Shown here: positions 33,696 to 47,964 of the stretch, one piece after another
How the letters are laid out: every line of letters begins with the position of its first letter
Numbering within the stretch: position 1 is the stretch's first letter
Assembly (NCBI GenBank): GCA_963710375.1
Contig: CAVPZX010000002.1
Coordinates: 288,001 to 352,000 of the forward strand
Length of the DNA stretch: 64,000 bases
Direction: 5' to 3'
DNA from: Nitrospirota bacterium
GTDB taxonomy: Bacteria; Nitrospirota; Thermodesulfovibrionia; Thermodesulfovibrionales; Dissulfurispiraceae
Notes under the pieces: generated by a model
Seen by the model: the letters and a program-made list of their open reading frames with translations, nothing else
Database searches by the model: none
What the model was told of the DNA's origin: nothing
Made by a program: the position numbers and the translations under genes

Positions 33696-35894
33696 TTATA
33701 ACATCGGCGGCATTTCTAATGCCGGATGCGAAACTTTTGTGAGATACTCCAAAAGTTTTTCCGAATCCTCGCAGATAGTATCGTCAGCTATCTTATCAAG
33801 CAGATCCGGGACCCCCTCTTCAGCAGCCCTCTTTTTGAATGCCTCTCCAATCCTTTCTTTAAGGGATGCAGGCATCCAGACTATCCTCTTTATTCCGCCA
33901 TCGCCGAAAAGGAACTTCCTGCTCGGAATGAAGTTCACTCCGATGCCCATGAATCCAGGGGTTTGGGCGCCACCTCCGACCGAGCCTGCGAATGTCGAAA
34001 ACTTCATGCCGACAGGCGTCATTCCCTGATGACCTCTGTGCACAATCATAACTCCGTTTGCCTCGGGGATGATTCCGACTATGCACTCGAAGCATCCGCA
34101 GGAGGTCATCGGATTGTCCATGATGGTGTACATGTTTACGGATTCGACAGCACCGCCGGTGGCCTGTTTAACATAATTATCCACACCCTTAAAGCGCCCT
34201 AATTTAGCATCGATCACTTCCTCTTTCTTGATAGGCTGGTTTCCGCCTGTAGGGTCTATTTCTTTTGCCGCTTTGCAGTCAAGCCAGTTGAATGCGCCGC
34301 AAAGCCCAAGCCTTTCAGGAGACACTACGCAAATATGGCTCGGAGCAAAAGACTGGCAGAGAAGGCATGAATAAAAATCTTCCACTGTTTCGTCAGTCAG
34401 ACCTCCCAGTCTTGCATCGCGCTCTGTATATGCAGCCCTTGCCTCCTGCAGCTTTTCATTAACTTCATTCGCATCCAGGTATAACGTAACCTGGGCCTTG
34501 TCAACAATGGATTTAAATCTGTGATGTGCCATTGTGGTATGAATAATGCCCAGATGCTCCAAAGTGAATCCCGCCTGCTTGGCCGCGTTGCTTATCCTTA
34601 CCCAGTTGACATCTCTCTGACCCATGTGGAATATTCCCTGGGCCTCGTTGAGGTCTGCGTGGATCTTCCTCTCGAGAACAGATTCAAAATCCTTTTGCAT
34701 CTTGCGGCCGGCAACTTCTATAACGATACCAAGAGGCATCCTGCCGCCCTTTTCATATATCTCTTTCCAATTGTCGGGCTTGATAATGACCTTGTTGTCT
34801 TCTACCTCGTCCATTTCCCTCATTCTGACCCATTCGAATGCGGGTGTTTTCTGGCCGCCCATTTCCGCAAAGGTATCTTCCTTCCTTATCCTCTCGCCCT
34901 CGAATGCAGGCCCGAATGCAACTGGAATTGGAGGCTTCTCAACGGTAATCTTGAGTCCTCTTACCTCGATTGCCTTCTGGACGATCTTGGCATGGTCGAA
35001 TTCCTTATCGACGTGCTCATATGTGCAAACTCCTGTCGGGAGAATGGTCGGAACATCAGTATCGCAAACAGCAGGGAAGCCCATGTTGATAGCGCCGGCG
35101 CCGGTTGCCCACTTTATGTCATCCATTGGGCCGAGAGCTATCGCAAATGCAAAGACCCTGTCTTTCTGGTAAAGGAGATGTCCCTTGTAATCTCCGGGTT
35201 TCTTGCCGCCGAATATGAGGGAGGCCCTTATCGCCCAGTCTGCAGCATAAAGAATATGCTCCGTATCAGGGCCCAATGGTACGATTCTGGCATCCCAGCC
35301 TAGTTCTATATTCTTCCTGAGAAGCTGTTTAGTCATGCTATCGCCATTTGACTGACCTGCAAGGAAAGTAAGTATGTTCTTCTCTTGAAGCTCCCTGGCT
35401 ATATTCACAGCAATGTCGTCGGTGGGAGCCGCTCCGAGGATACAGGCAAATCCCGGCATCGTACCGTCAACGAGTTGGATGCCCAGGTTTCTCTGGATGG
35501 TATCACCTATAAACCCATTGTACACATATCCCGTTTCAGGGTCCTTGCACGGCTCGAGGCCGTTGACATACCTGAGCGCAAGAATTATCTCTTCCGCAAA
35601 AAGTGTAGCCATGCCGCTATCAAGAGTCTCGCCGAGATAGGGGAGCCAGAGCTTATCTGTGGGCTCATCATGAAGCAGCTCCTGGGCATAACGAAGTCCA
35701 ACCTCCATATCTCCGAGCGTTTTTACCTTGAAAGTGGTCATTGCAAGTATCATGGGAAGCTGAAAAGCGGTGTCAGGAAACTCAAAAACATAATCTTTTC
35801 CCTTTTCAGCTATTGTCTTTTTAAGCATTTCTTCCGCGCGGTTCACGAGTGAACGTGCGCCCCTAATAGCCGCTGTTGCAATAATCTTTGACAT
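33696..35894 (-). CDS. acsB: Acetyl-CoA synthase (bacterial type)
   Basis: FPDTAF.LP N-terminal domain; CLLCQSFAP.H.C, GLCGA and TSCGCFEC A-cluster motifs. Confidence 0.97.
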   Translation of the reverse strand: MSKIIATAAIRGARSLVNRAEEMLKKTIAEKGKDYVFEFPDTAFQLPMILAMTTFKVKTLGDMEVGLRYAQELLHDEPTDKLWLPYLGETLDSGMATLFAEEIILALRYVNGLEPCKDPETGYVYNGFIGDTIQRNLGIQLVDGTMPGFACILGAAPTDDIAVNIARELQEKNILTFLAGQSNGDSMTKQLLRKNIELGWDARIVPLGPDTEHILYAADWAIRASLIFGGKKPGDYKGHLLYQKDRVFAFAIALGPMDDIKWATGAGAINMGFPAVCDTDVPTILPTGVCTYEHVDKEFDHAKIVQKAIEVRGLKITVEKPPIPVAFGPAFEGERIRKEDTFAEMGGQKTPAFEWVRMREMDEVEDNKVIIKPDNWKEIYEKGGRMPLGIVIEVAGRKMQKDFESVLERKIHADLNEAQGIFHMGQRDVNWVRISNAAKQAGFTLEHLGIIHTTMAHHRFKSIVDKAQVTLYLDANEVNEKLQEARAAYTERDARLGGLTDETVEDFYSCLLCQSFAPSHICVVSPERLGLCGAFNWLDCKAAKEIDPTGGNQPIKKEEVIDAKLGRFKGVDNYVKQATGGAVESVNMYTIMDNPMTSCGCFECIVGIIPEANGVMIVHRGHQGMTPVGMKFSTFAGSVGGGAQTPGFMGIGVNFIPSRKFLFGDGGIKRIVWMPASLKERIGEAFKKRAAEEGVPDLLDKIADDTICEDSEKLLEYLTKVSHPALEMPPML

Positions 35895-35950
35895 CTCTAA
35901 AACCTCCTGGCATTAATTTATTCAATTTTGAAAACAGCTTCTACTCTCTG

Positions 35951-37288
35951 TTAACGCGACCTCAAGAAAACCGGCAGCCCGTTGGCTTCCCTTGGGCCGA
36001 CAGTGATCTTCCAGCCCGGAAGCTTGTCTTCAATCGAACCACTCAGTATTGCCACGTACCCTGGAATGATCAGCTCCTTATGGCTTATCTCATTCTCCAC
36101 TCCGCATTCCTTGATGAATGCAGCAACCTTTGATGCGTTGAATTTACCGGCGGCCCATCCGGTAAGCACTGATAGCCCCTCGGTATCAAGCACAGCAAGC
36201 CTCACAGGGACCTTGCTGCCTTCGATCTCTCCTGAGACAATAAAATATGTAAGAGAGAAGTTTGAGGTGATGAGCAGCGGGGAGTCTGCAGTCGGCTCGC
36301 CGATTTTATAAACGTTCTGCGGGACCTGCAGCGGGACCTGAGGGTCAGTATAGATATTCTGCCTAAGGGTGAACAGCGCAAGGTTCTTCCACTTGTCGAT
36401 GCTGCTCACAACCACGATAGACGAATATTTTGTAATTCCGAGGGCTGCAATAAGAGTCTCCAGCATGACATCATCTCTTTGTGCAAAGCTGATTACAGGG
36501 AACCCTACCGACTTATTGCCTTTCTTAACCGCTGCCCTTCTGATATAAGTATTGTCCCGCAGCATCTCTTTGGCAGTGCGTGCGCCCGAGTCAATGACCA
36601 TGTCCTCAACACCGAGCCCTTTAATCTTGTCCGTAAGTGCTGTCAATGCGTCAAGCCCTTTGGCAACTACTCCGAGAGAGACCTTATGGGTCTTTGCAAT
36701 ATTCGCCATCTGATCGGCGTTGGACTCGTTTGCTCCGTAAAGGAGCGGCTTCTTGTCTGCTACAGCCTTGACAGCTGCCTCTGCTGCAGCCGGATTTGTC
36801 GTGGAAAGTATCAATGGCACTGCTGGAGCTTTGGCAGCGATAGCCTTTACAACACCCTCAAATTTTCCTGCGTCGCCCGATACATTATTAATAAATATCG
36901 CGTTAACCCTGAGCTTCTGACCAACTCTGTCTATTTCCGAATTGACGACTTGATCTGTTAAGCTGTTTATTTCACTGTCGGACATCGAATCTTTTATTTC
37001 CACAGCTATAGCACATGGGTTAACAAACTTCTTGTCATGCCTGAACAGGACAGTTTCTTCGCCCATTTTTACTGCCTTGTCTCCCACTCCGAGTGTAATG
37101 GGTCTTATAGGAGGAGCAGACGCCTCACCGAGGACCTTTTTAGCCTCTTCCGAGACATCGGGGCACAAATCGAGAGAAGCCTGTCTCTGGGCCAGTTTCA
37201 TTGCAAAAGCAAGGCATGTCGGATGTCCGCATTTCTTGCAATTGGTTTTTGGCAGCAACTTAAATATCTCAACGCCGGATAACGCCAT
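35951..37288 (-). CDS. acsC: Corrinoid Fe-S protein large subunit
   Basis: LPKTNCKKCG.PTCLAFA, NIYTDPQ.P, TEGLSVLT.WAAGK and GPREA motifs. Confidence 0.97.
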   Translation of the reverse strand: MALSGVEIFKLLPKTNCKKCGHPTCLAFAMKLAQRQASLDLCPDVSEEAKKVLGEASAPPIRPITLGVGDKAVKMGEETVLFRHDKKFVNPCAIAVEIKDSMSDSEINSLTDQVVNSEIDRVGQKLRVNAIFINNVSGDAGKFEGVVKAIAAKAPAVPLILSTTNPAAAEAAVKAVADKKPLLYGANESNADQMANIAKTHKVSLGVVAKGLDALTALTDKIKGLGVEDMVIDSGARTAKEMLRDNTYIRRAAVKKGNKSVGFPVISFAQRDDVMLETLIAALGITKYSSIVVVSSIDKWKNLALFTLRQNIYTDPQVPLQVPQNVYKIGEPTADSPLLITSNFSLTYFIVSGEIEGSKVPVRLAVLDTEGLSVLTGWAAGKFNASKVAAFIKECGVENEISHKELIIPGYVAILSGSIEDKLPGWKITVGPREANGLPVFLRSR

Positions 37289-37299
37289 TGTAACCTCCC

Positions 37300-38238
37300 T
37301 TACATTAATTCATCTATGAATTTTTCTATTGCCTTAACTGACTCAGGATGCCTCATGATCAAAAGCTCTGAGCCGGCAAGCATGAGTGCGCCCGCTGTCA
37401 GAGTTTCCCATGCAATTCCTCTCGGCTCAAGAGCGCCGCCTACAGGAAGTTCGGCTTCGGGAGCACTGGACTCCTTGACCTTCCAGGCATACATACCGAT
37501 ATCGCCCAGCATCGGTGTCTGCATCGTTAGGTCATTCTGGGTCAAGGCAGCAAGCCTGATTCTCTCCATGACAGAATAAGTATAGTCCAGCCCATATCCG
37601 AGCGCAGAACACATAGGATCAGTTACCATCCTCTCCTTGTCAAAGCCCATTTGCGTTATCAGGATATTGAGCTGCTTGGAAAGATTGATATCGAGCTGAG
37701 ACATGGCTATAAGCTTATGATCGTTGGCCATACAGGCAGCAACGATTGTTTTGTAGTTTTCTTCCATGGCCTTACCTATGAAACAATTCCTGCCCTTGGC
37801 TGCTTCAGCCGCAGCGACCAAGACCAACGTATCTTTCTCAATATTGTTGCTGCCGAGGATTATTAAAGGGACTTTTACTGCGGCAAGCACATCCTTTACT
37901 GTCTTCGCAGCGTCTTCGGCGGAGCGGTTTTCCCTGTCGGGATGGGTCCCTATCAGCCTGAGTGCTATCGCCTTTGCATTCAGTTTGTCCTCGCAATATT
38001 TTGCCCATGTTACAGGATCACCAGATACTCCTTCGTACACTTTTTTTACAGTATCCGGCCAATCATCAGGAGGGACATCCTGAATCTCATAAGCTATGAC
38101 GGGTCTGTTGGGAACATTCCCTTCAAATGCATCAAAAGGAAGCACATTCTCTCCACCAATAACAATCGTCTTATCCGTACCGCCTTCAACTTGATAAACC
38201 TTTCCAGAATAAGTCTCGTTTGGCGCCGTAAATGCCAT
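37300..38238 (-). CDS. acsD: Corrinoid Fe-S protein small subunit
   Basis: GGE..LPF..FEG, DINL.KQLNI, ALGYGL.YTYSVMER and RHP motifs; GGAGG SD before 38238. Confidence 0.95.
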   Translation of the reverse strand: MAFTAPNETYSGKVYQVEGGTDKTIVIGGENVLPFDAFEGNVPNRPVIAYEIQDVPPDDWPDTVKKVYEGVSGDPVTWAKYCEDKLNAKAIALRLIGTHPDRENRSAEDAAKTVKDVLAAVKVPLIILGSNNIEKDTLVLVAAAEAAKGRNCFIGKAMEENYKTIVAACMANDHKLIAMSQLDINLSKQLNILITQMGFDKERMVTDPMCSALGYGLDYTYSVMERIRLAALTQNDLTMQTPMLGDIGMYAWKVKESSAPEAELPVGGALEPRGIAWETLTAGALMLAGSELLIMRHPESVKAIEKFIDELM

Positions 38239-38298
38239 ATATACCTCCATTTTTTAGTCGCCCGCCGGTAGTTTCTTGTATCGACCGTTGACAGTATT

Positions 38299-39081
38299 TT
38301 ACATTTCCAAATACGAATGGGCATAAAGGGTCCTGCCCATTATCACATCTATCGTCTTTGTAGTTTCCATTACCTCATGAGCATCGGCGATTGCAGCAGT
38401 CAGTCCTTCATACGCCAACAATGCGAACAAATATTTATTCATTATAGGCCTGAGGGCTTTCGGCATCCCGTTGGATATATTACTTAGTCCCACCACTGTC
38501 TTCATTGGAGGATCGTTCAGTTCCTGAAACATCTTGACCGCTTTAACTACTTTTAACGCCTGGTCCTGAGTAGTAGCGATCTGCAGAACAAGCGGGTCGA
38601 GATACAGGTCTTCAACCGGTATGCCGTATTCCATTGCCCTCGCCATCATCTCTGCTGCAATACCTGCCCTTTCCTCAGCATCAGCAGGAAGGCCGCCTTT
38701 GCCGACAGTAAGTGCTATTAATTGCGATTTGTATTTCGCGGCAATTTCCATGATAGGAAATCTTTCTGGATCGTTAGAAGTGGAATTAATCAGCGGCCTG
38801 CCCCATTGGCTGTTGTGGACCTGCAGCCCGGCCTCGATAGCCTTGGCATTCGTAGTGTCAAGACAGACAGGAAGGGGAACAACTTCCTGAATGGTTGTTA
38901 CCATCCACTGCATCATTTTTTCTCCGCCATCCTCCGCCGGGCCGATATTGGCATCAATCATGCCGGCGCCTTCTTTCCATTGTCTCGTTGCAATTTCCTG
39001 AATAGGCCCTTTGTCGAATTTCATCATTGCTTCACGCACTCTTTTAGCTATGATGCTGAGCTTCTCACCGATTATTAGCAT
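38299..39081 (-). CDS. acsE: Methyl-THF:corrinoid Fe-S protein methyltransferase
   Basis: IIGE, DANIGP, CLDT, LINS, LDPLV and GLSNISNG pterin-binding motifs; located in the acs operon. Confidence 0.92.
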   Translation of the reverse strand: MLIIGEKLSIIAKRVREAMMKFDKGPIQEIATRQWKEGAGMIDANIGPAEDGGEKMMQWMVTTIQEVVPLPVCLDTTNAKAIEAGLQVHNSQWGRPLINSTSNDPERFPIMEIAAKYKSQLIALTVGKGGLPADAEERAGIAAEMMARAMEYGIPVEDLYLDPLVLQIATTQDQALKVVKAVKMFQELNDPPMKTVVGLSNISNGMPKALRPIMNKYLFALLAYEGLTAAIADAHEVMETTKTIDVIMGRTLYAHSYLEM

Positions 39082-39209
39082 ACTATCTCCTTTCAAAAAT
39101 GGCGCTATAAAAAGACATGTTACGGATAGTAACATAGCAAAAATAAAGATGTCTATTAGTTCTTCTTTATAACCTTATAATAACTGTTTATTTTATAACA
39201 GCCCACGAA

Positions 39210-39977
39210 CTATGGAATATTTAATGACGTCAAAATACCGAACAGCGCCTGAACGGATTTCGATTCTTCAGGAAGCTTTAATACAGGCTTCCCCTCAAGG
39301 TCAAATTTAAAAATCGCCTCATCCTGCGGGACGAGGCCGGCTACGGTAACACCTGCCTTCTCGGCCATCGTCTTAAGGTCTTCCCCCTCGTATCCGATCA
39401 CCCTGTTGATGATCAGCACCCTACGGTCCACCTCGAGATGCAATTCCTCAACAAGGTTATTGATCCGCTCTGCAGTCATCACGCCTTTCACCGTAGGGTC
39501 GCTGACAATTATAAGCACATTGACTTTGTGAGTGGTCCTCCTGCTCAAATGCTCCATACCGGCCTCGTTGTCGATCACAACGTACGGATACTTCTCAGAC
39601 AGCAGATCGGTGTACTTCCTTATTATATTATTTGCCGCGCAGTAACAGCCGGGACCCTCGGGCCTCCCCATGACCATGAGATCAAACCCTTCAGCCTCGA
39701 TAATCGACTGCTGCACCTGATAGTCGAAGAGCTGCTCCATCGCCATTCCGCCGGGCCTGCTGCCGCCTTCCCTCACAGCCTGTAGAGACTCTTCCCTGAG
39801 ACTGCCGATAGTTGCGTGGACCTCGACTCCAAGCGCCTCGTTCAGGCACGCATTGCTGTCTGCGTCAACCGCGAGGACCGGCCCCTTTCTTTTATCAAGC
39901 AGGTATTTCACAACCAATCCTGCCAAGCTTGTCTTCCCTGTGCCGCCTTTGCCTGCAAAAGCAATAGTAAACGCCAT
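39210..39977 (-). CDS. cooC: CooC/AcsF nickel-insertion ATPase
   Basis: AGKGGTGKT, GPGCYC..N and DNEAGMEHLSR motifs. Confidence 0.92.
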   Translation of the reverse strand: MAFTIAFAGKGGTGKTSLAGLVVKYLLDKRKGPVLAVDADSNACLNEALGVEVHATIGSLREESLQAVREGGSRPGGMAMEQLFDYQVQQSIIEAEGFDLMVMGRPEGPGCYCAANNIIRKYTDLLSEKYPYVVIDNEAGMEHLSRRTTHKVNVLIIVSDPTVKGVMTAERINNLVEELHLEVDRRVLIINRVIGYEGEDLKTMAEKAGVTVAGLVPQDEAIFKFDLEGKPVLKLPEESKSVQALFGILTSLNIP

Positions 39978-40625: not shown

Positions 40626-40672
40626 CCCTATATATTAATAAAAAACAGAAAAAAAGCTCAATAAATTTTTAT

Positions 40673-43141
40673 TTAGATTTTAAATTCTTTTACGACATTT
40701 TGCAGCTCTGCCGATACACGCTCCAGTTCCCCCGCTGTCTGGGTAGTCTGCGCCATACCGCTGGCAAAATCAGCCGCAACATTGGAAATGCCTCTTATGC
40801 TGGCGGTTATCGACTCGATAGTTGATAGCTGCTCATGAGACGCGGTAGCTATATGTGCAACCATTTCAACTTCTCTGTCGATGCTCTCCACTATTTTGTG
40901 CAACGCTTCGCCTGCTGTATGGGCATAACTCACTGCTGAGTCTACGTCATGCAATCCTCGTCTCATGGCTACCACCGCCTTTTCGGACTCGGACTGGATG
41001 GCGGTTATCATATCCGTTATCTCCGTTGTGGCAGCAGCCGTTCTTTCCGCAAGCTTTCTAACCTCGTCCGCAACAACTGCAAATCCCCTGCCCTGCTCTC
41101 CGGCCCTTGCAGATTCGATTGCGGCATTGAGCGCAAGCAGGTTCGTCTGATCGGCTATGTCTTTGATGACCGATACGATCTCTCCGATCTTTTCCGACTT
41201 GTGCGAAAGATTTTCTATAATTTCGGCCGCATTCTTTACGGTTACCGATACGTTCTTGATGCCTTCCGCAGCCTGAACAACCACTTTGCTTCCATCTGTC
41301 GCTATAGTCTCGGTCTCTTTTGCAAAGGAAGCAGTGGAATGCGCGTTTTCGACGACGTCCTGGAGAGTTGTTGACATCTCCTCGGCTGCCGTCGAAAGGG
41401 TGTTCACTTCGCTTGCCTGCATGTTCGCCCTTTGCGAAAGCTCCTCGGCAGTTGCAGACAATTCGTGAGCCGAAGACGATACGGCATTAGTTTTTTCAGA
41501 TACGGTTGAGACGGATTTATGGAGTTTTTCGACCAGCACGTTGAAACTTTCGCATATCAGTCCAATCTCATCAGCAGACTCCACCTTTAATCTCTTAGTC
41601 AGGTCGCCTTCTGAACTCGCGATATTTCTGATCATCTCTTCTGTGTTTTTCAGCGGCCCCGAAACGCTCCCAATGGTTCTCCAATTCAATACGAACGTTA
41701 TAAGGATTATTATGCCGGACAGAACAAGCATCAAAGTAAGCGACCCCCTGACAGAACTATTCACGCCGCTTACTACTTCCTCCTGCTTCTGGGTAATATT
41801 CCTTACCTGCTCTTCGCCGTGGCTGCTCTGCTCTTTGGTAACATTTTTAATCATGTCTATAGTCTTCAGCATGGCTGCATCACTTTCCAGCACGCTCCGC
41901 TTAGCCCCCAGAATATTTGTCATCGAGCCCTGGACCCTTCTGACCAGCCCTGGCAGCACATCGGCGCTCTTCGCTATTGCAGTCTGTCCCATCTGGACAA
42001 GCACCTTCTTCATCCTTTCGCCGTCTTTCAGCATCTGGTCCTCGATCCTCCGCGTGTCGGAAGATATTCTGTCCAGCTCTGCATCGGATGCGCTGAGCAT
42101 GATAAGGCGCATTTTGGCATCAAGCTCCTTGACATCGATACTCAAAGAGCTGCCGATACCGGTTATCTGGTTTGCGCTCTTTTGGAAATCCATGGAACGT
42201 TCCACATTCTGTCTGTCCTGGACAACCTGCAACTCATATGAATCTATGGTCTCGGATATCTTGGCATTCAGGGTATCTATCGCATTCAAGATATCACTCT
42301 TGAGATTGAGATACTGACCCTCCACATCCTGGCCCTTCAGGATATCCGCCCTCAGTGCGACAAGCCCCGACCCTTCACGGGTGATTTTTTCGTAAAGGCC
42401 CTGCGAGATATCCTTAACCTCTTTGATTATCGGGGGATCGCCCTTTTCATATTCAACGTTCTGAACCGAATCGGCAAGAGCCTTTAACCTTTCCTTTACA
42501 GGATTCAGCTTGAATCTGTTTTTTATTGTCTCTACTTCGCCGGCAACCGCGCCCATATCTTTGATCCGCCCCTGAATGATATACAGCTTTTTAATAGTAC
42601 CGTTCAGCCTGAGATTCAACTGCTGCGCATCACGGAGAGCATTTTCAGCATTCGTATTCAGACCCGTGATACTGTTCTTGATGCCTGTAATAGCTTCGTC
42701 CTCTTTTTTTAACGCGTCCCCTACATTGGCGGATTCGGTCTTGAACAGGGCCATATCTTTAAGCCTCTCCTGGACCGACTGGATTATTGTCTTATGAATG
42801 TTCTTGAAGACACCGGTATCAGCGACAGATGCGTTCTTATCGAGGCGTTCAATATCCGCTTTTGTCGTCTCAAAAGATTTTATATGGTCGTTTATCCGCC
42901 CTGAAATGCGCTCCACCTCGGCAGAGTCGGTCAACATGCCGAGTCTCAGAAAATCAGCGGAGAGCCTTTCAATTGTCTGCTGGAGTTCCAGGGTCTTCAC
43001 CTCGAGAGGTGTCGCTTTTGCGGTCAGACTGTCCAGGCTTGCCTTTATCTTGAGAATTCCGTATGTTCCGATTGCGACAATAAATACGATCCCTAATGCT
43101 GTAAACAAAGCATTGCCTATCATCTTCTTCTTAACAGTCAT
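40673..43141 (-). CDS. Methyl-accepting chemotaxis protein with a very large periplasmic domain
   Basis: Two TM segments, HAMP (GDLT.RL...DEIG), [38 protein letters not shown]. Confidence 0.96.
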
Positions 43142-43186
43142 TTCCTCATCCCCTCAGATGCTTATGATCAATGCGCCTATATCGCT

Positions 43187-44341
43187 CTAATTGCTGATCG
43201 TTGTTATAGGGACAATTTTGCCGTCCTTGATCTCGGTCAGAAACACCGTATTGGATGCCTGATGGTTATCCTTTCCGAGACTGAGCACCATTCCCCCTAT
43301 ATCCACATTTTTCATGTCTTCAAATGCATTTATCAATCCATCTCTCGTCAGGTCCTTGCCGGCCTTTTCTAGCGCCATGCACATTACTTTAGCGGTTATG
43401 CATCCTTCCATGTTCACAAAGCCCGTTTTTTGATCAGGAAAATACTTTGTGATCAAGGTGCCGCATTCCTTGATAATAGGGACCGATGGATCCTCTGGGA
43501 AAGGAACAACCTGCGATATCACTACTCCATCGCCTTCCTTACCGACAGCGCTTACGAGATCATCAGTGCCTACAAAAGACACCGTGGCGAGATGGGCCTT
43601 CAGGCCGTCTGTTTTCGCCTCCTTGATAAAGACGCCAATAGGAGAGTAAGGACCCACCATAATGACAACATCAGGATTCGCCGCCATCACCGATGCGAGG
43701 CCCGTTTTTACGGCAAGGGTATTCCTCTGGAATGTCCCCTTTGCAACTACATCAAGGCCGCGCTTTTTGAGAGCCTTTTCGGTCCCCGAGAGCACAGCTT
43801 GTCCGAACCCGTCATCCTGATAGAAAACAGCAAACTTCTTTGCACCAGTGTCTTTGACAAAGTGTTCAATGAGCATCTCCGGCTCATCGTTGTAGCTGGC
43901 CCTTATGTTTATTATCTCGTGAGTTACCGGATTCCTTAATGTCATTGCACCTGTAAACAGACCTACGAGAGGGACCTTGTCCTCCTTTACTATCGGGATT
44001 ACAGCGTTTGCAGTCGGAGTACCGACATACCCGAACAGAGCGAAGACTTTCTGCCCCTCTATCATCTTCAAGGTCTGATCGATCGCCTTGTCAGGCTCAT
44101 ATCCGTCGTCAGCTACAACAAGATTTATCTTCCTGCCGAGGATACCTCCCTTTGCATTTGCCTCTTTGAAAAAGGCCTCAGCTCCAACACGCATCCCATT
44201 ACCCAATCCTGCAGCCCCTCCGGTCTGCGCATTCACCATTCCGAGTTTGATCTCGGTGTCAGTGACTCCATCGGCAGCATAGAGTCTATTTGCAACAACC
44301 ATAGCACTGATGAGTATTAAGAATACAAGAAACTTCTTCAT
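43187..44341 (-). CDS. Periplasmic solute-binding protein (LivJ/PBP type 1), no permease adjacent
   Basis: Signal peptide; GG..GRKI.L...DDGYEP, GYVGTPT, RASY..E and ISQVVP.P motifs. Confidence 0.9.
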   Translation of the reverse strand: MKKFLVFLILISAMVVANRLYAADGVTDTEIKLGMVNAQTGGAAGLGNGMRVGAEAFFKEANAKGGILGRKINLVVADDGYEPDKAIDQTLKMIEGQKVFALFGYVGTPTANAVIPIVKEDKVPLVGLFTGAMTLRNPVTHEIINIRASYNDEPEMLIEHFVKDTGAKKFAVFYQDDGFGQAVLSGTEKALKKRGLDVVAKGTFQRNTLAVKTGLASVMAANPDVVIMVGPYSPIGVFIKEAKTDGLKAHLATVSFVGTDDLVSAVGKEGDGVVISQVVPFPEDPSVPIIKECGTLITKYFPDQKTGFVNMEGCITAKVMCMALEKAGKDLTRDGLINAFEDMKNVDIGGMVLSLGKDNHQASNTVFLTEIKDGKIVPITTISN

Positions 44342-44668
44342 ACGTCCTCCTTTCGTTGCATTTCATGCCGGACGAAAACCTTCCACAGGCATTGCGGATG
44401 CCGGCTTCGTCCATATTTAGAAATGCTGTTCGTTACGATAGATGTTTTTCCCATTGGAGACATACTGCTTTCGTGACGGTTGCCAAGAAACATTTGAAGA
44501 TACTTCTCCACTCATAAACTTGAGTATTAAATACTTATACAAATCAAAATGTCAACGCCTCGTACAACTCTGTGTCAAGCCAATTTAAAAATATCCGGAT
44601 TTACGCTTTCGCTTTCCTCTCCATTTGCCACGGCTAAATGTCTAACCATCAATCGAGTTAATCATCAA

Positions 44669-44683
44669 GCAAGGACTGTGCCA
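44669..44683 (-). promoter_or_regulatory. Sigma-54 (-24/-12) promoter toward the SBP-MCP operon
   Basis: Minus strand reads TGGCAC-AGTCC-TTGC, an exact consensus. Confidence 0.85.
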
Positions 44684-44744
44684 GACGACACAATGTAGTA
44701 TCTTTTTGATTTATTGGGATTTCTGAGGAATGGGATACATCATC

Positions 44745-44865
44745 AATGTGGATTAATTCCAATGTCTGTGGAAAGATTCCATTGGATAACAAGAAACTCG
44801 AAAGCTTTTCGATGATTAATCATAATTATGTATTTTTTTCATCGACATTGGAATTAATCCACATT
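44745..44865. promoter_or_regulatory. Putative enhancer (UAS) boxes TGGA-N5-TCCA
   Basis: Perfect 22-bp inverted pair at 44745-44766 and 44844-44865, plus a third box TGTGGAAAGATTCCA at 44767. Confidence 0.7.
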
Positions 44866-44927
44866 CATTAATGAAAAACATTCCTCAGAGATCCTAATAA
44901 ATCAGGAAGTTAATACATTGTATCTCT

Positions 44928-44942
44928 TGGCATAGTCCTTGC
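44928..44942 (+). promoter_or_regulatory. Sigma-54 (-24/-12) promoter toward the gene at 45043
   Basis: TGGCAT-AGTCC-TTGC; IHF-like AATCAGGAAGTTA just upstream. Confidence 0.85.
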
Positions 44943-45042
44943 TGCATCATTAAATAATCATAAGATGCAGCAGCCGATGACCCAAAAAGTATGAGTGTTT
45001 TATCGGATAGGCAATATCTTATACGACACATCTGCCGGTTAA

Positions 45043-47883
45043 ATGATAGAGGGGAGGACAGTGGAGACTGTATTACATAAATATGATTCCACAATATTAT
45101 CCGACAATCCCGAGGTTCTCAGCAGGATGAATACATCATACTTGGGCAGCTATATTCAGCGGGAAGTGCCGGATGCCGGGAAGTATATACAGCAGGCTCT
45201 GGCAATACAGGCCTCCCTGTTCGAAAAGGGAGAGCGCAAAAACATCGGTCAGATCATGACCGAAAACGGGTGGATCGGCAATGAGGAGCTTCAGCATTGC
45301 CTTGTCCGGCAGCTGGAGGACCGGCTTGCCGAGATTGAGCTTTTCGAGACCGTACCGTTTGATGTGCTGATGCGGCTGGCCCGCGAATCACGCCAAATAT
45401 CGGTACCTCCAGGAAACGTCATTTTCAACAACAACGACAAAAGCGATAGTTACTTTATAATCGTTTCGGGCAGGGTCGCCATTTCAGACCATGGAGAGGA
45501 TGGAAAGGTCGAAACGACCGCAAGTCTCGGGCCTGGTGATTGCTTCGGTGAGATGACTATGCTCGCCGGCAAGGGAAGCAGCGCAAAATTCACCGCAGAG
45601 GAGAATACGGTGCTGATATTGATTCCGAAGCCGGCCTTCGATTTGATACATGGAACCGGATCTACAGTTTCTCAAGGGTTTATCCGCATACTTGCCGGGC
45701 GACTTATGAAAAGCGCCAACTGGATTTCTGAGGTCAAGGCGGACGAAGAGGCGTACCGTCAGTTTATCGCTGAACAACTTGGAAAGAACGAGCCATCTAT
45801 TATAGGAAGCACGGCAGTAATAAAAAAAGTGCTTGCAGATATAGAGCGGGTTTCTGAAGGCAGCGGGCCGGCGCTGGTGCAAGGCGAAAGCGGAACTGAA
45901 CTCTGGGATGCGGCAGCGCTTATACACAAGAAAAATCGCGAATCAGGGAAGCTCTTGACCTATGATGCAAGGCGGAAGGGTACAGGCTATCGGTCCGGAC
46001 CCTATGAGCGCCGCAGGCAAAGTGATATGCTGAGCCAAATGAGCACCCTGTTCGGGAGGGCTAACTCCATGCAAGCTGAGGAGGGAGGGCGCATCGGACT
46101 CCTCCAGATCGCCGATGGCGGTACTCTGGTCGTTGAACATGTCGAAATGCTCCATTCAAAGGTCCAGCAGAAACTGGCTGAACTTATTGCTACAGGCAAA
46201 TTCCAAATACCCTTTGATAATACAATGCAGTCATCTAGTGTACGTTTGATATTTACTACAAGCGCCGACCTTGCGAATATGGCGGCGAATGGCAACTTTG
46301 ACACAAAACTTCTTGATCTCATAAGCCGGAATATTATCACTTTGCCTGCGCTCAGGAAAAGAAAAAAGGATTTAAGGGAAATAGTCGCTCATATTATAGA
46401 AAGGAACAATCGGCAACTGGGTATGGCCATTGAAGGGCTGGATGATTCTGCCTACAAGGAGATCATGGCCTCTGACTGGCCCGGGAATAGTGAGGAACTC
46501 AACAACGTCATAAGACGCGCAATGATGCTCTGCCGTGACAGAGCGCTGTCTGCCGAACACATCTTCCTGAGTTCTCCTCCGGTCAAAGGACAGGTCACCT
46601 TTGACCTCTTCAAGATTTCCACTGTTAAGGATTTTTTCCTCAACAGCGGTTTTTTTACGACCGCACATTTGGTTATTGCGTCATTCATAGGGATCATCAT
46701 CGTCAGCGGCCTGTTCGGGAACCAGGACCCTGCCAAGAATGCAGCGATCGTTCTTACCTGGGGTTACTGGGAGCCGATTTTCGTGCTGAGCACCTTTTTC
46801 TTCGGCAGGTTATGGTGTGGTGTATGCCCCATCGGCTCGACAATTTCTTTCATCAGCACAAGGGTTGGACTAAAGAAGAAGATACCTCAGTTGCTCCGCA
46901 ATTATGGGATCTATCTCAGCGCGGCAGGAATTGCCGCCATATTTTGGGCCGAGTCTATATCGCACATGGTCATATCTCCAAAGGCGACAGGTCTACTGGT
47001 GCTGACGATATCGCTGTTGGCTTTGTTTACAGGCATGCTCTTCGATCGAAGAACCTGGTGCCGTTACCTATGCCCTATCGGTGCTATCGCCGGATTCTTT
47101 TCAAGTTGTTCGGTAACAGAGCTACGGTCAAATTACAATATCTGCAGTGAGGACTGTATTAAGCACGATTGTTATGTCGGCAATGAGAAAGCAGCAGGAT
47201 GTCCTTTATTTCAGGGACCGTTCTCGCTGAGGACCAACAAAGACTGCGTTCTCTGCGGCAACTGCGTCAGGGCATGTCCGAAGAATTCGATAGCCCTGAA
47301 CCTCCGCATTCCGGGACAGGAACTTTGGGCATCATACCAGATTGAAAAGAGCGCCGTGATTATCTGTTCTACAATGCTCGGCACGCAATTATTCCGTGGT
47401 CTCGAGCATGCCGGTGTCTTCGGTGTGCTTACCTCATCAGACATGTGGTGGCTATGTGCCGCAACAGCGATTCTGTCACTTACGCTTGGCGTTATGGCAG
47501 CTGCAGCCGTCATTGGAAAACTTGTCTTTCCAGTCAGCGATGAGTCTGGCGGGGAAATGTCACGCATCATATACTCCTTCATTCCGCTTTCGTTTTCCTT
47601 TGAGATAGGTTATCACCTGCACAGGATGCTAACGCTTAGCGGTATTTTGCCGGATGTTATTCTCTACCAACTTTTTGGTAATGACAACTATTCGATAAGA
47701 CCGGTCGTAAGTGCTGGTGGCATCAAGACGCTGCAGGTCATTATCATGCTGATCGGCCTAGCCGGCAGCGCCTACGTTGCAAGGCGCATGACAAGTGGCA
47801 TCAGTTCGCCGGAACGGTTTCCAATATGGCCGGCGTTTGTCCTTAACGTTATCCTCACCAGCCTGTTTCTTGCATTTAAGTAA
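45043..47883 (+). CDS. Multidomain membrane sensor: MshEN-like + cNMP-binding + degenerate sigma-54 AAA + NapH/NosR-like polytopic Fe-S domain
   Basis: IGQIMTENGWI....LQHCLVRQ; LGPGDCFGEM; QGESGTE...WPGN without GAFTGA; WCGVCPIG, WCRYLCPIG and CVLCGNCVRACP with many TM segments. Confidence 0.8.
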   Translation: MIEGRTVETVLHKYDSTILSDNPEVLSRMNTSYLGSYIQREVPDAGKYIQQALAIQASLFEKGERKNIGQIMTENGWIGNEELQHCLVRQLEDRLAEIELFETVPFDVLMRLARESRQISVPPGNVIFNNNDKSDSYFIIVSGRVAISDHGEDGKVETTASLGPGDCFGEMTMLAGKGSSAKFTAEENTVLILIPKPAFDLIHGTGSTVSQGFIRILAGRLMKSANWISEVKADEEAYRQFIAEQLGKNEPSIIGSTAVIKKVLADIERVSEGSGPALVQGESGTELWDAAALIHKKNRESGKLLTYDARRKGTGYRSGPYERRRQSDMLSQMSTLFGRANSMQAEEGGRIGLLQIADGGTLVVEHVEMLHSKVQQKLAELIATGKFQIPFDNTMQSSSVRLIFTTSADLANMAANGNFDTKLLDLISRNIITLPALRKRKKDLREIVAHIIERNNRQLGMAIEGLDDSAYKEIMASDWPGNSEELNNVIRRAMMLCRDRALSAEHIFLSSPPVKGQVTFDLFKISTVKDFFLNSGFFTTAHLVIASFIGIIIVSGLFGNQDPAKNAAIVLTWGYWEPIFVLSTFFFGRLWCGVCPIGSTISFISTRVGLKKKIPQLLRNYGIYLSAAGIAAIFWAESISHMVISPKATGLLVLTISLLALFTGMLFDRRTWCRYLCPIGAIAGFFSSCSVTELRSNYNICSEDCIKHDCYVGNEKAAGCPLFQGPFSLRTNKDCVLCGNCVRACPKNSIALNLRIPGQELWASYQIEKSAVIICSTMLGTQLFRGLEHAGVFGVLTSSDMWWLCAATAILSLTLGVMAAAAVIGKLVFPVSDESGGEMSRIIYSFIPLSFSFEIGYHLHRMLTLSGILPDVILYQLFGNDNYSIRPVVSAGGIKTLQVIIMLIGLAGSAYVARRMTSGISSPERFPIWPAFVLNVILTSLFLAFK

Positions 47884-47964
47884 CCTGCCTCTGCCGGTCC
47901 TTTCCTTACGCCTACTCCAATTGCTTTTGATTACCAATGCCGATGAGTTAAAATAGAGGTTGCT

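Follow-up and report, generated by a model that had tools for sequence, protein, structure and literature searches.

The two promoter-bearing arms of an inverted repeat in the window (the whole 64,000-nucleotide stretch of DNA analysed here) are probably independent members of a family of 27 promoter cassettes, likely borne by the right end of an IS1202-family insertion sequence (IS) and now likely forming the regulon of one activator family. We see an even chance for the stronger proposition that a promoter-homing transposon captured an enhancer-dependent promoter of its host, installed it before ∼25 genes, and built a working motility regulon in one burst. We infer transposase-driven spread for most copies, as well as the activator's identity and the copies' function. 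If true, this would be transposon-driven regulon assembly in a bacterium, with placement supplied by a targeting rule, and it would involve nearly half of the genome's sigma-54 promoters.

The initial annotation described a mirror-image repeat of ∼100 bp at ∼80% identity. We confirmed this inverted repeat at a greater length: blastn aligned the arms at 78.6% over 126 nt, which gives a module of ∼125 bp, and the arms pair as 44658-44732 with 44879-44953 (81%, 75 nt) and 44742-44782 with 44828-44868 (83%, 41 nt). Alignment confirmed an identical 22-bp box common to both arms, and each arm carries the -24/-12 element, palindromic box, and IHF-like site that had been reported, the last of which we take to be such from its match to the IHF consensus. 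A "third box" noted at 44767 also exists, but it is not a separate element. The enhancer of the source promoter described below consists of tandem TGGAA-N3-TTCCA boxes 20 bp apart, and the third box is therefore the distal half of the left arm's own tandem enhancer (10/10); its right-arm partner has decayed (Table 1). The arrangement is genuine rather than an assembly artefact, as a contig from run X4, from another study, covers 43800-44938 with 0 differences; a second, overlapping X4 contig covers 44914-45800, and X5 covers 44286-44967.

TABLE 1 Features around the two cassette copies (window positions)
Feature	Position	Strand	Remark
Methyl-accepting chemotaxis protein (MCP), 822 aa	40673..43141	-	
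Periplasmic binding protein (Peripla_BP_6), 384 aa	43187..44341	-	
TTGACA -35 hexamer	44550..44555	-	exactly 17 bp past the IS end; full promoter not called by consensus scan
IS1202/ISTde1-like right-end remnant	44573..44622	-	ends at terminal inverted repeat; 22/24 final bases match
Copied leader	44623..44657	-	resembles fliL-like 5' leader of the source locus; tails compared by eye
Left cassette copy (core)	44658..44782	-	towards solute-binding protein/MCP pair; profile E 1.2e-33
Left -24/-12 element	44669..44683	-	predicted start near 44657
Left IHF-like site	44699..44712	-	29 bp before -24 box
Left proximal enhancer box	44749..44761	-	TGGAA-N3-TTCCA type palindrome
Left distal enhancer box	44769..44781	-	20 bp from proximal box
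Right cassette copy (core)	44826..44953	+	towards cNMP/AAA-like/Fe-S gene; IS end not detected; profile E 6.4e-29
Right distal enhancer box	44829..44841	+	decayed (7/10)
Right proximal enhancer box	44849..44861	+	
Right IHF-like site	44899..44912	+	
Right -24/-12 element	44928..44942	+	predicted start near 44954
cNMP + degenerate sigma-54-type AAA + NapH-like membrane Fe-S protein, 946 aa	45043..47883	+	

An iterated profile search recovered 27 dispersed copies in the genome at E <= 2e-17, with the next match at E 0.02 and 0 matches in the reversed-genome control. In the ∼125-bp cassette, tandem enhancer boxes are followed at fixed spacing by an IHF-like site and then by a -24/-12 element. The IHF-like site lies 29 bp from the -24 box in 27/27 copies, and the distance between the proximal box and the -24 box is 79 bp in 19 copies, 78 or 80 bp in 5, and 69, 91, and 92 bp in one each; the three large length changes (-10, +12, and +13) would each be close to one helical turn. 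GG at -24 and GC at -12, at fixed distance, were found in 26/27 copies, both window arms included; the remaining copy, whose -24 box is broken, also faces no co-oriented gene. Scanning the genome for TGTGGA-N5-TCCA, the motif first proposed, was a poor guide to the family (13 matches, most of them unrelated); the true motif consists of two 13-bp boxes in tandem. The family makes up 26 of the 55 candidate intergenic sigma-54 promoters in the genome, and the core flagellar operons have sigma-54 promoters of their own without the cassette. Outside the family, no native tandem boxes were found in the genome at the threshold used, and looser tandem-box sites occur at C2:214012 and behind an activator paralogue at C2:590763. 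An upstream extension of about 15 to 60 bp is shared by several copies, and no source for it was found in this genome or the compared loci. Separately, we observed a second, unrelated sigma-54 promoter copied 3 to 4 times (C2:168670, C2:617849, C3:152812, and C3:150425); three of its copies are 83 to 94% identical at non-motif positions, it spans 130 to 314 bp, and it looks younger.

Identity at non-motif positions was 68% among the 19 standard-length copies and 28% among 29 other candidate sigma-54 promoters, and the copies are therefore related by descent and not by convergence. Convergent binding sites held at fixed spacing, or a structured noncoding RNA, might be imagined instead, since sigma-54 promoters need phased sites and the two arms together can form a long hairpin. 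We regard this as the least probable of the readings we weighed: the spacers are alike as well as the motifs, whereas in native tandem-box promoters behind activator paralogues the motifs are shared and the spacers are not. Further, no Rfam model matched the cassette at its gathering score (five miRNA-type matches fell far below), and 25 copies have no inverted partner.

Nor do the two arms appear to derive from each other. It had been proposed that one promoter cassette was duplicated locally in inverted orientation, creating a compact regulon of two units; the arms do face outwards, and they have the 22-bp stretch in common. However, this stretch is close to the family consensus, and the 27 dispersed copies contradict a purely local event. 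The arms are 76.5% identical to each other and up to 79.8% identical to other copies (family mean, 74.9%), so that they are not mutual best matches, and the left arm matches several copies at 80 to 85% over 101 to 125 nt, the genes downstream being unrelated. The arms were also not joined in a tree of 47 cassette rows, which is star-like with bootstrap support not settled and from which we draw no order of events; moreover, their tails differ, and an IS end is present in the left arm only. A local duplication is thus very improbable. What stands of the earlier proposal is that each arm is a complete sigma-54-type promoter module and that both probably answer to one activator; a compact regulon of two units does not stand, as copies lie across the genome.

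The family has its source in a promoter that combines a tandem enhancer with an IHF-like site and a -24/-12 element; it directly follows an NtrC-type response regulator gene (C5:492032-493450) and precedes a fliL-like gene. This arrangement is kept in G008, G005, G003, G004, G006, and G009, and likewise, without fliL, in G052, which belongs to another genus; tandem boxes lie behind the activator gene in 7/7 same-genus genomes that have the gene, plus G052. Also in support of this source, the secretin-gene copy and one G008 copy contain the 3' end of the activator gene (by eye). In several other genera, related activators precede looser boxes (recognized by eye) and a -24/-12 element, and for this reason the NtrC-type activator family is the likely regulator of the cassettes. 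We name the family and not one gene because the source-locus activator in this genome carries GSFTGA (GAFTGA in congeners) and three paralogues have a similar recognition helix. Activator paralogues lie at C2:590763, C2:65652, and C8:294655. The genome has 29 PF00158 matches (enhancer-binding proteins), of which 24 are strong, four PF00216 genes (IHF/HU family), and an ORF at C6:116954 with what we take to be an RpoN box. Two side observations concern related genes: an activator paralogue (L014:2652-4016; C2:65652) is itself preceded by a cassette, an arrangement that could act as a feed-forward or positive loop, and a ycgR-like gene that follows fliL in the G005 source operon lies elsewhere in this genome with its own cassette (L047:347-973; L016:2236-2862). 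At a cassette, phosphorylated activator would bind the tandem boxes, IHF would bend the DNA, and sigma-54 polymerase would start ∼12 nt after the GC, in line with the general mechanism as given in the accessible part of PMC7057263.

The family has expanded in this lineage. With a sequence-only model, we found 1 to 5 copies in each of nine congeners versus 27 in this genome, where it is important to note that two of the nine matched only at E ∼1e-3 and that some congeners are 74 to 88% complete. Weak cassette matches were present in 4/54 genomes of other genera. G007 (98% complete) had neither the activator, at the cutoff used, nor a strong cassette, and G001 (88% complete) had four cassettes and no activator match. 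All seven sites tested were empty in all congeners aligned: between the pilus ATPase and platform genes (3/3 congeners; gaps of 4 to 7 bp in two), between fliA and the HEAT gene (4/4), before the secretin gene (2/2), at cheV (1/1), between crp and htrA (4/4), at motA (2/2), and at the C6 kinase (1/1; in G002, the -35 box is present and the cassette absent). Three sites are older and common to congeners, namely, the source, apbE to MCP, and hemerythrin.

The carrier was recognized from the tails downstream of some copies, which match DNA present five times in G007. This is a 1,445-bp IS with TGT...ACA ends, a 432-aa transposase with only weak helix-turn-helix matches in Pfam, and 15- to 17-bp target duplications, present in four full copies. 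The ISTde1 subgroup of IS1202 is described, in the accessible part of the family account, as having TGT ends, a length of 1.3 to 2.0 kb, a 400- to 500-aa transposase, and a 16- to 17-bp duplication and as occurring in Nitrospira-group genomes (Siguier et al., 10.1101/2022.12.17.520857); in its ends, duplications, length, and single transposase, the G007 element fits this part of the description. A profile of the IS right end, built from relatives, gave seven matches in this genome at E <= 0.012, five of which closely follow a cassette and share its strand (binomial P ∼1e-15). The window's left arm is one of these five; its terminal repeat ends at 44573. The promoter and a leader of ∼40 bp are fused to the final ∼80 bp of an ISTde1-like element in at least five copies, and the junction falls at the same place in the IS-end copies, ∼40 bp after the -12 box. 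The composite therefore arose once and then multiplied.

Other parts of the carrier are sparse. A left IS end gave one partial profile match (C2:822454) and one candidate missed by the profile (C2:774795; 15/24, P = 0.01 in a simple scan). The latter copy, between crp and htrA, is bracketed by a ∼17-bp target duplication, and its target is single in 4/4 congeners. It is the one convincing target duplication among the 27 copies, as two further repeats (P = 0.01 to 0.02) flank no element, and a search over 6 kb that allowed up to 5 mismatches gave none for the left arm. No cognate transposase was matched in this genome at E <= 1e-30 (best tblastn identity, 22 to 27%), and IS ends were seen at 0/14 congener cassette loci and at 0/5 more from G006 and G009. 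The copy at the cheB site in a sister population keeps the IS right end (E 5e-6), while the copy in this genome has nearly lost its own; erosion of IS parts is therefore real, and the IS element is a fossil here. A more distant relative of the transposase (32% identity) is present in at least 25 identical copies in G005, a recent IS burst.

The ISTde1-like elements insert in one orientation, 16 to 17 bp before -35 boxes (L075-L081, L111-L117, L119, L128-L131, L137, and L138). A full sigma-70 promoter match followed 17/21 right ends (shuffle mean, 1.4; maximum, 5 in 1,000), and a -35-like hexamer at 15 to 17 bp followed 19/21 (shuffle mean, 3.0); the 21 exclude a left end of L128 as well as L118, L120, and L132, which are without a pattern match and were not counted, and same-genome copies among them are not fully independent. 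Two solo right ends in the window's genome, at C3:203647 and C2:43058, obey the same rule. Past the IS end, TTGACA stands at 17 bp in the left arm and at 14 bp in the C6 kinase copy, and TTGCAA at 16 bp in the cheV copy; the hexamer beside the left arm is likely a preexisting sigma-70 promoter next to which the element landed. The copy before htrA breaks the rule, its target having no TTGACA at 16 to 17 bp. This target (L020:1554-1575; C2:775050) overlaps a perfect palindrome, presumably of the CRP/FNR type, just behind a Crp-family gene. Because the IS lands with its right end facing the gene, beside a sigma-70 promoter, cassettes point towards genes. In the accessible part of the family account, xrs targeting is reported for the ISAba32 subgroup only, and targeting of sigma-70 -35 boxes by ISTde1-like elements does not appear (10.1101/2022.12.17.520857).

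Taken as a mechanism, a transposase acting in trans would have moved the composite by its right end and a true or surrogate left end. Since the parent IS inserts 16 to 17 bp before a sigma-70 -35 box with the right end gene-ward, each landing would aim the promoter at a gene. Later, IS parts would have been eroded by deletions and the transposase lost, with selection keeping the copies before motility and sensing genes. Alternatively, ectopic recombination, gene conversion, or hitchhiking on transferred genes could have been the main route of spread, the IS end being a passenger in, or the mover of, one sublineage. A strong IS right end is present in 5/27 copies, with weak (profile) ends in two more and a short internal piece in two others, leaving 22/27 without a strong end; left boundaries vary between copies, and one copy includes the 3' end of the activator gene. 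In sister populations, moreover, L141 has the same cheB upstream and an MCP downstream, and L142 and L146 have the same cheY downstream and different sequence upstream, as though cassettes acted as breakpoints. The second copied sigma-54 promoter and the lack of IS ends at congener copies point the same way. However, the empty sites of 4 to 7 bp between the pilus genes would give recombination no homology, a 17-bp target duplication brackets one copy, three IS-end copies lie 13 to 17 bp before TTGACA or TTGCAA, and the C6 kinase -35 box stands in G002 without a cassette. We therefore think it unlikely that recombination was the main route, although part of the family may have spread in this way.

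A co-oriented gene lies downstream of 26/27 copies. Chemotaxis, flagellar, or pilus genes (Pfam) are the first or second gene for 16/27, including MCPs, CheY-like proteins, CheV, HEAT-CheR, MotA, FliL, YcgR, secretin, and the pilus platform; 6/27 precede genes for sensing of other kinds (three kinases, hemerythrin, a binding protein, and the Fe-S protein of the window), and 5/27 face other things or nothing, so that eleven targets are not motility genes. Half of the MCP-domain ORFs in the genome (9/18) are first or second downstream of a cassette (P ∼1e-12), two of these nine lying >500 bp behind the first gene and perhaps not cotranscribed. Two cassette targets, an MCP (L011:870-2385) and a PAS kinase (L015:2689-5263), are each split into two ORFs, perhaps by a frameshift or an assembly error.

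Deviation from the consensus among 19 copies was 16/627 cells (2.6%) at motif positions versus 165/1,064 (15.5%) in spacers, a figure that is partly circular for the box because the same alignment helped to define the motif columns. Between copies, the spacers are 68% identical, close to the figure for four-fold sites of the activator gene against three congeners (70 to 76%). Since the motifs are conserved while the spacers drift, the copies are likely functional promoters, and they likely put chemotaxis, motility, and signaling genes under one activator family. The family could instead be a neutral or selfish fossil repeat, its orientation due to IS targeting alone and most copies driving no regulated transcription. 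Targeting would account for co-orientation without selection, some targets look unrelated (a glycosyltransferase, HtrA, and a ShlB-type protein), the copy with the broken -24 box has no co-oriented gene, and an intact sigma-70 promoter stands behind several copies. We find this improbable, more so than spread by recombination, given that the GG/GC pair and the spacing have been kept while spacers diverged about as far as four-fold sites (one gene) have between congeners and that the enrichment of MCPs is strong.

Mobile promoters are a known kind of element. Putative mobile promoters have been defined as homologous noncoding DNA upstream of unrelated genes within one genome, at >=80% over >=50 nt (Nijveen, Matus-Garcia and van Passel 2012, PMC3575422). 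The cassette resembles them, as it reaches this identity upstream of nonparalogous genes, but the surveyed families are mostly pairs (PMC3575422), whereas this family comprises 27 copies of an entire enhancer-dependent promoter and has a traced source, empty sites, and an IS-end carrier. The survey left the means of movement open and named Correia elements, ERICs, and REPINs as promoter-bearing miniature elements (PMC3575422); on this question, the present family brings together, within one genus, a source locus and a carrier, a rule of targeting, sites that are empty in relatives, and traces of selection. The IS1202 account, as far as accessible, describes passenger genes and no captured host promoter or nonautonomous derivative, and it cites ISEcp1 as a type of mobile promoter (Siguier et al., 10.1101/2022.12.17.520857). 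Unlike ISTde1 elements, the cassette retains the right end alone, fused to a host promoter. In the open-access literature, as far as accessible, we met no description of an IS end that homes to promoters and has spread a captured enhancer-dependent one.

Comparison with other systems shows where the cassette departs from them. Repeats of the Correia, ERIC, and REPIN types are short, nonautonomous, and intergenic and can supply promoters, which are simple and belong to the element. The cassette, too, is a short intergenic repeat able to supply a promoter, but the promoter was captured from the host, comes with an enhancer and an IHF-like site, and responds to a specific activator; the ends of the cassette have largely been lost to erosion. 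In one-ended mobilization by ISEcp1, one true IS end is used with a variable other boundary; mobilization of this type would account for the uneven left ends of the cassette, although the IS family is another and the cargo is the promoter itself. Sigma-54 flagellar and chemotaxis regulons stand under an enhancer-binding protein of the FleQ/FlrA/FgrM type. The cassettes likewise place an enhancer, an IHF-like site, and a -24/-12 element before motility genes, but they form an add-on layer made by copying, the core flagellar operons being without them. Such copying would be a fast way past the main obstacle to building a sigma-54 regulon, the need for enhancer, IHF site, and -24/-12 box to come in together and in phase. 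Natural variation among the 27 copies, together with the congeners that lack them, opens the idea to direct test, and a delivery end that homes to promoters could serve as a tool.

At nine loci, homologues of the two genes that the window's arms face had no sigma-54 promoter with a box upstream, and the cassettes were therefore grafted onto these genes; in the window, the two copies would have come to lie back to back on a horizontally acquired block. G052 has the source activator and enhancer at the head of a chemosensory operon in which the binding protein and the MCP of the window have homologues (70% and 38%, respectively). The left cassette may therefore have restored an old regulatory link after the binding protein/MCP pair moved. 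The 946-aa protein is not the activator, because it has no GAFTGA and no helix-turn-helix. A paralogue at C3:107088 matches it at 40%, and homologues at 50% occur in a different family of the order. By eye, its N terminus resembles what we take to be an MshEN motif, a resemblance that was not significant (E 0.063 versus the pilus ATPase). The block lies between HAD and GidA-family (likely trmFO) genes, in a gap (window 40626-47964) that looks like an insertion hot spot, being empty in G007 and holding different cargo in G003, G005, and G001. At window 33696-39977, a Wood-Ljungdahl-type acetyl-CoA synthase gene cluster was recognized from the translations.
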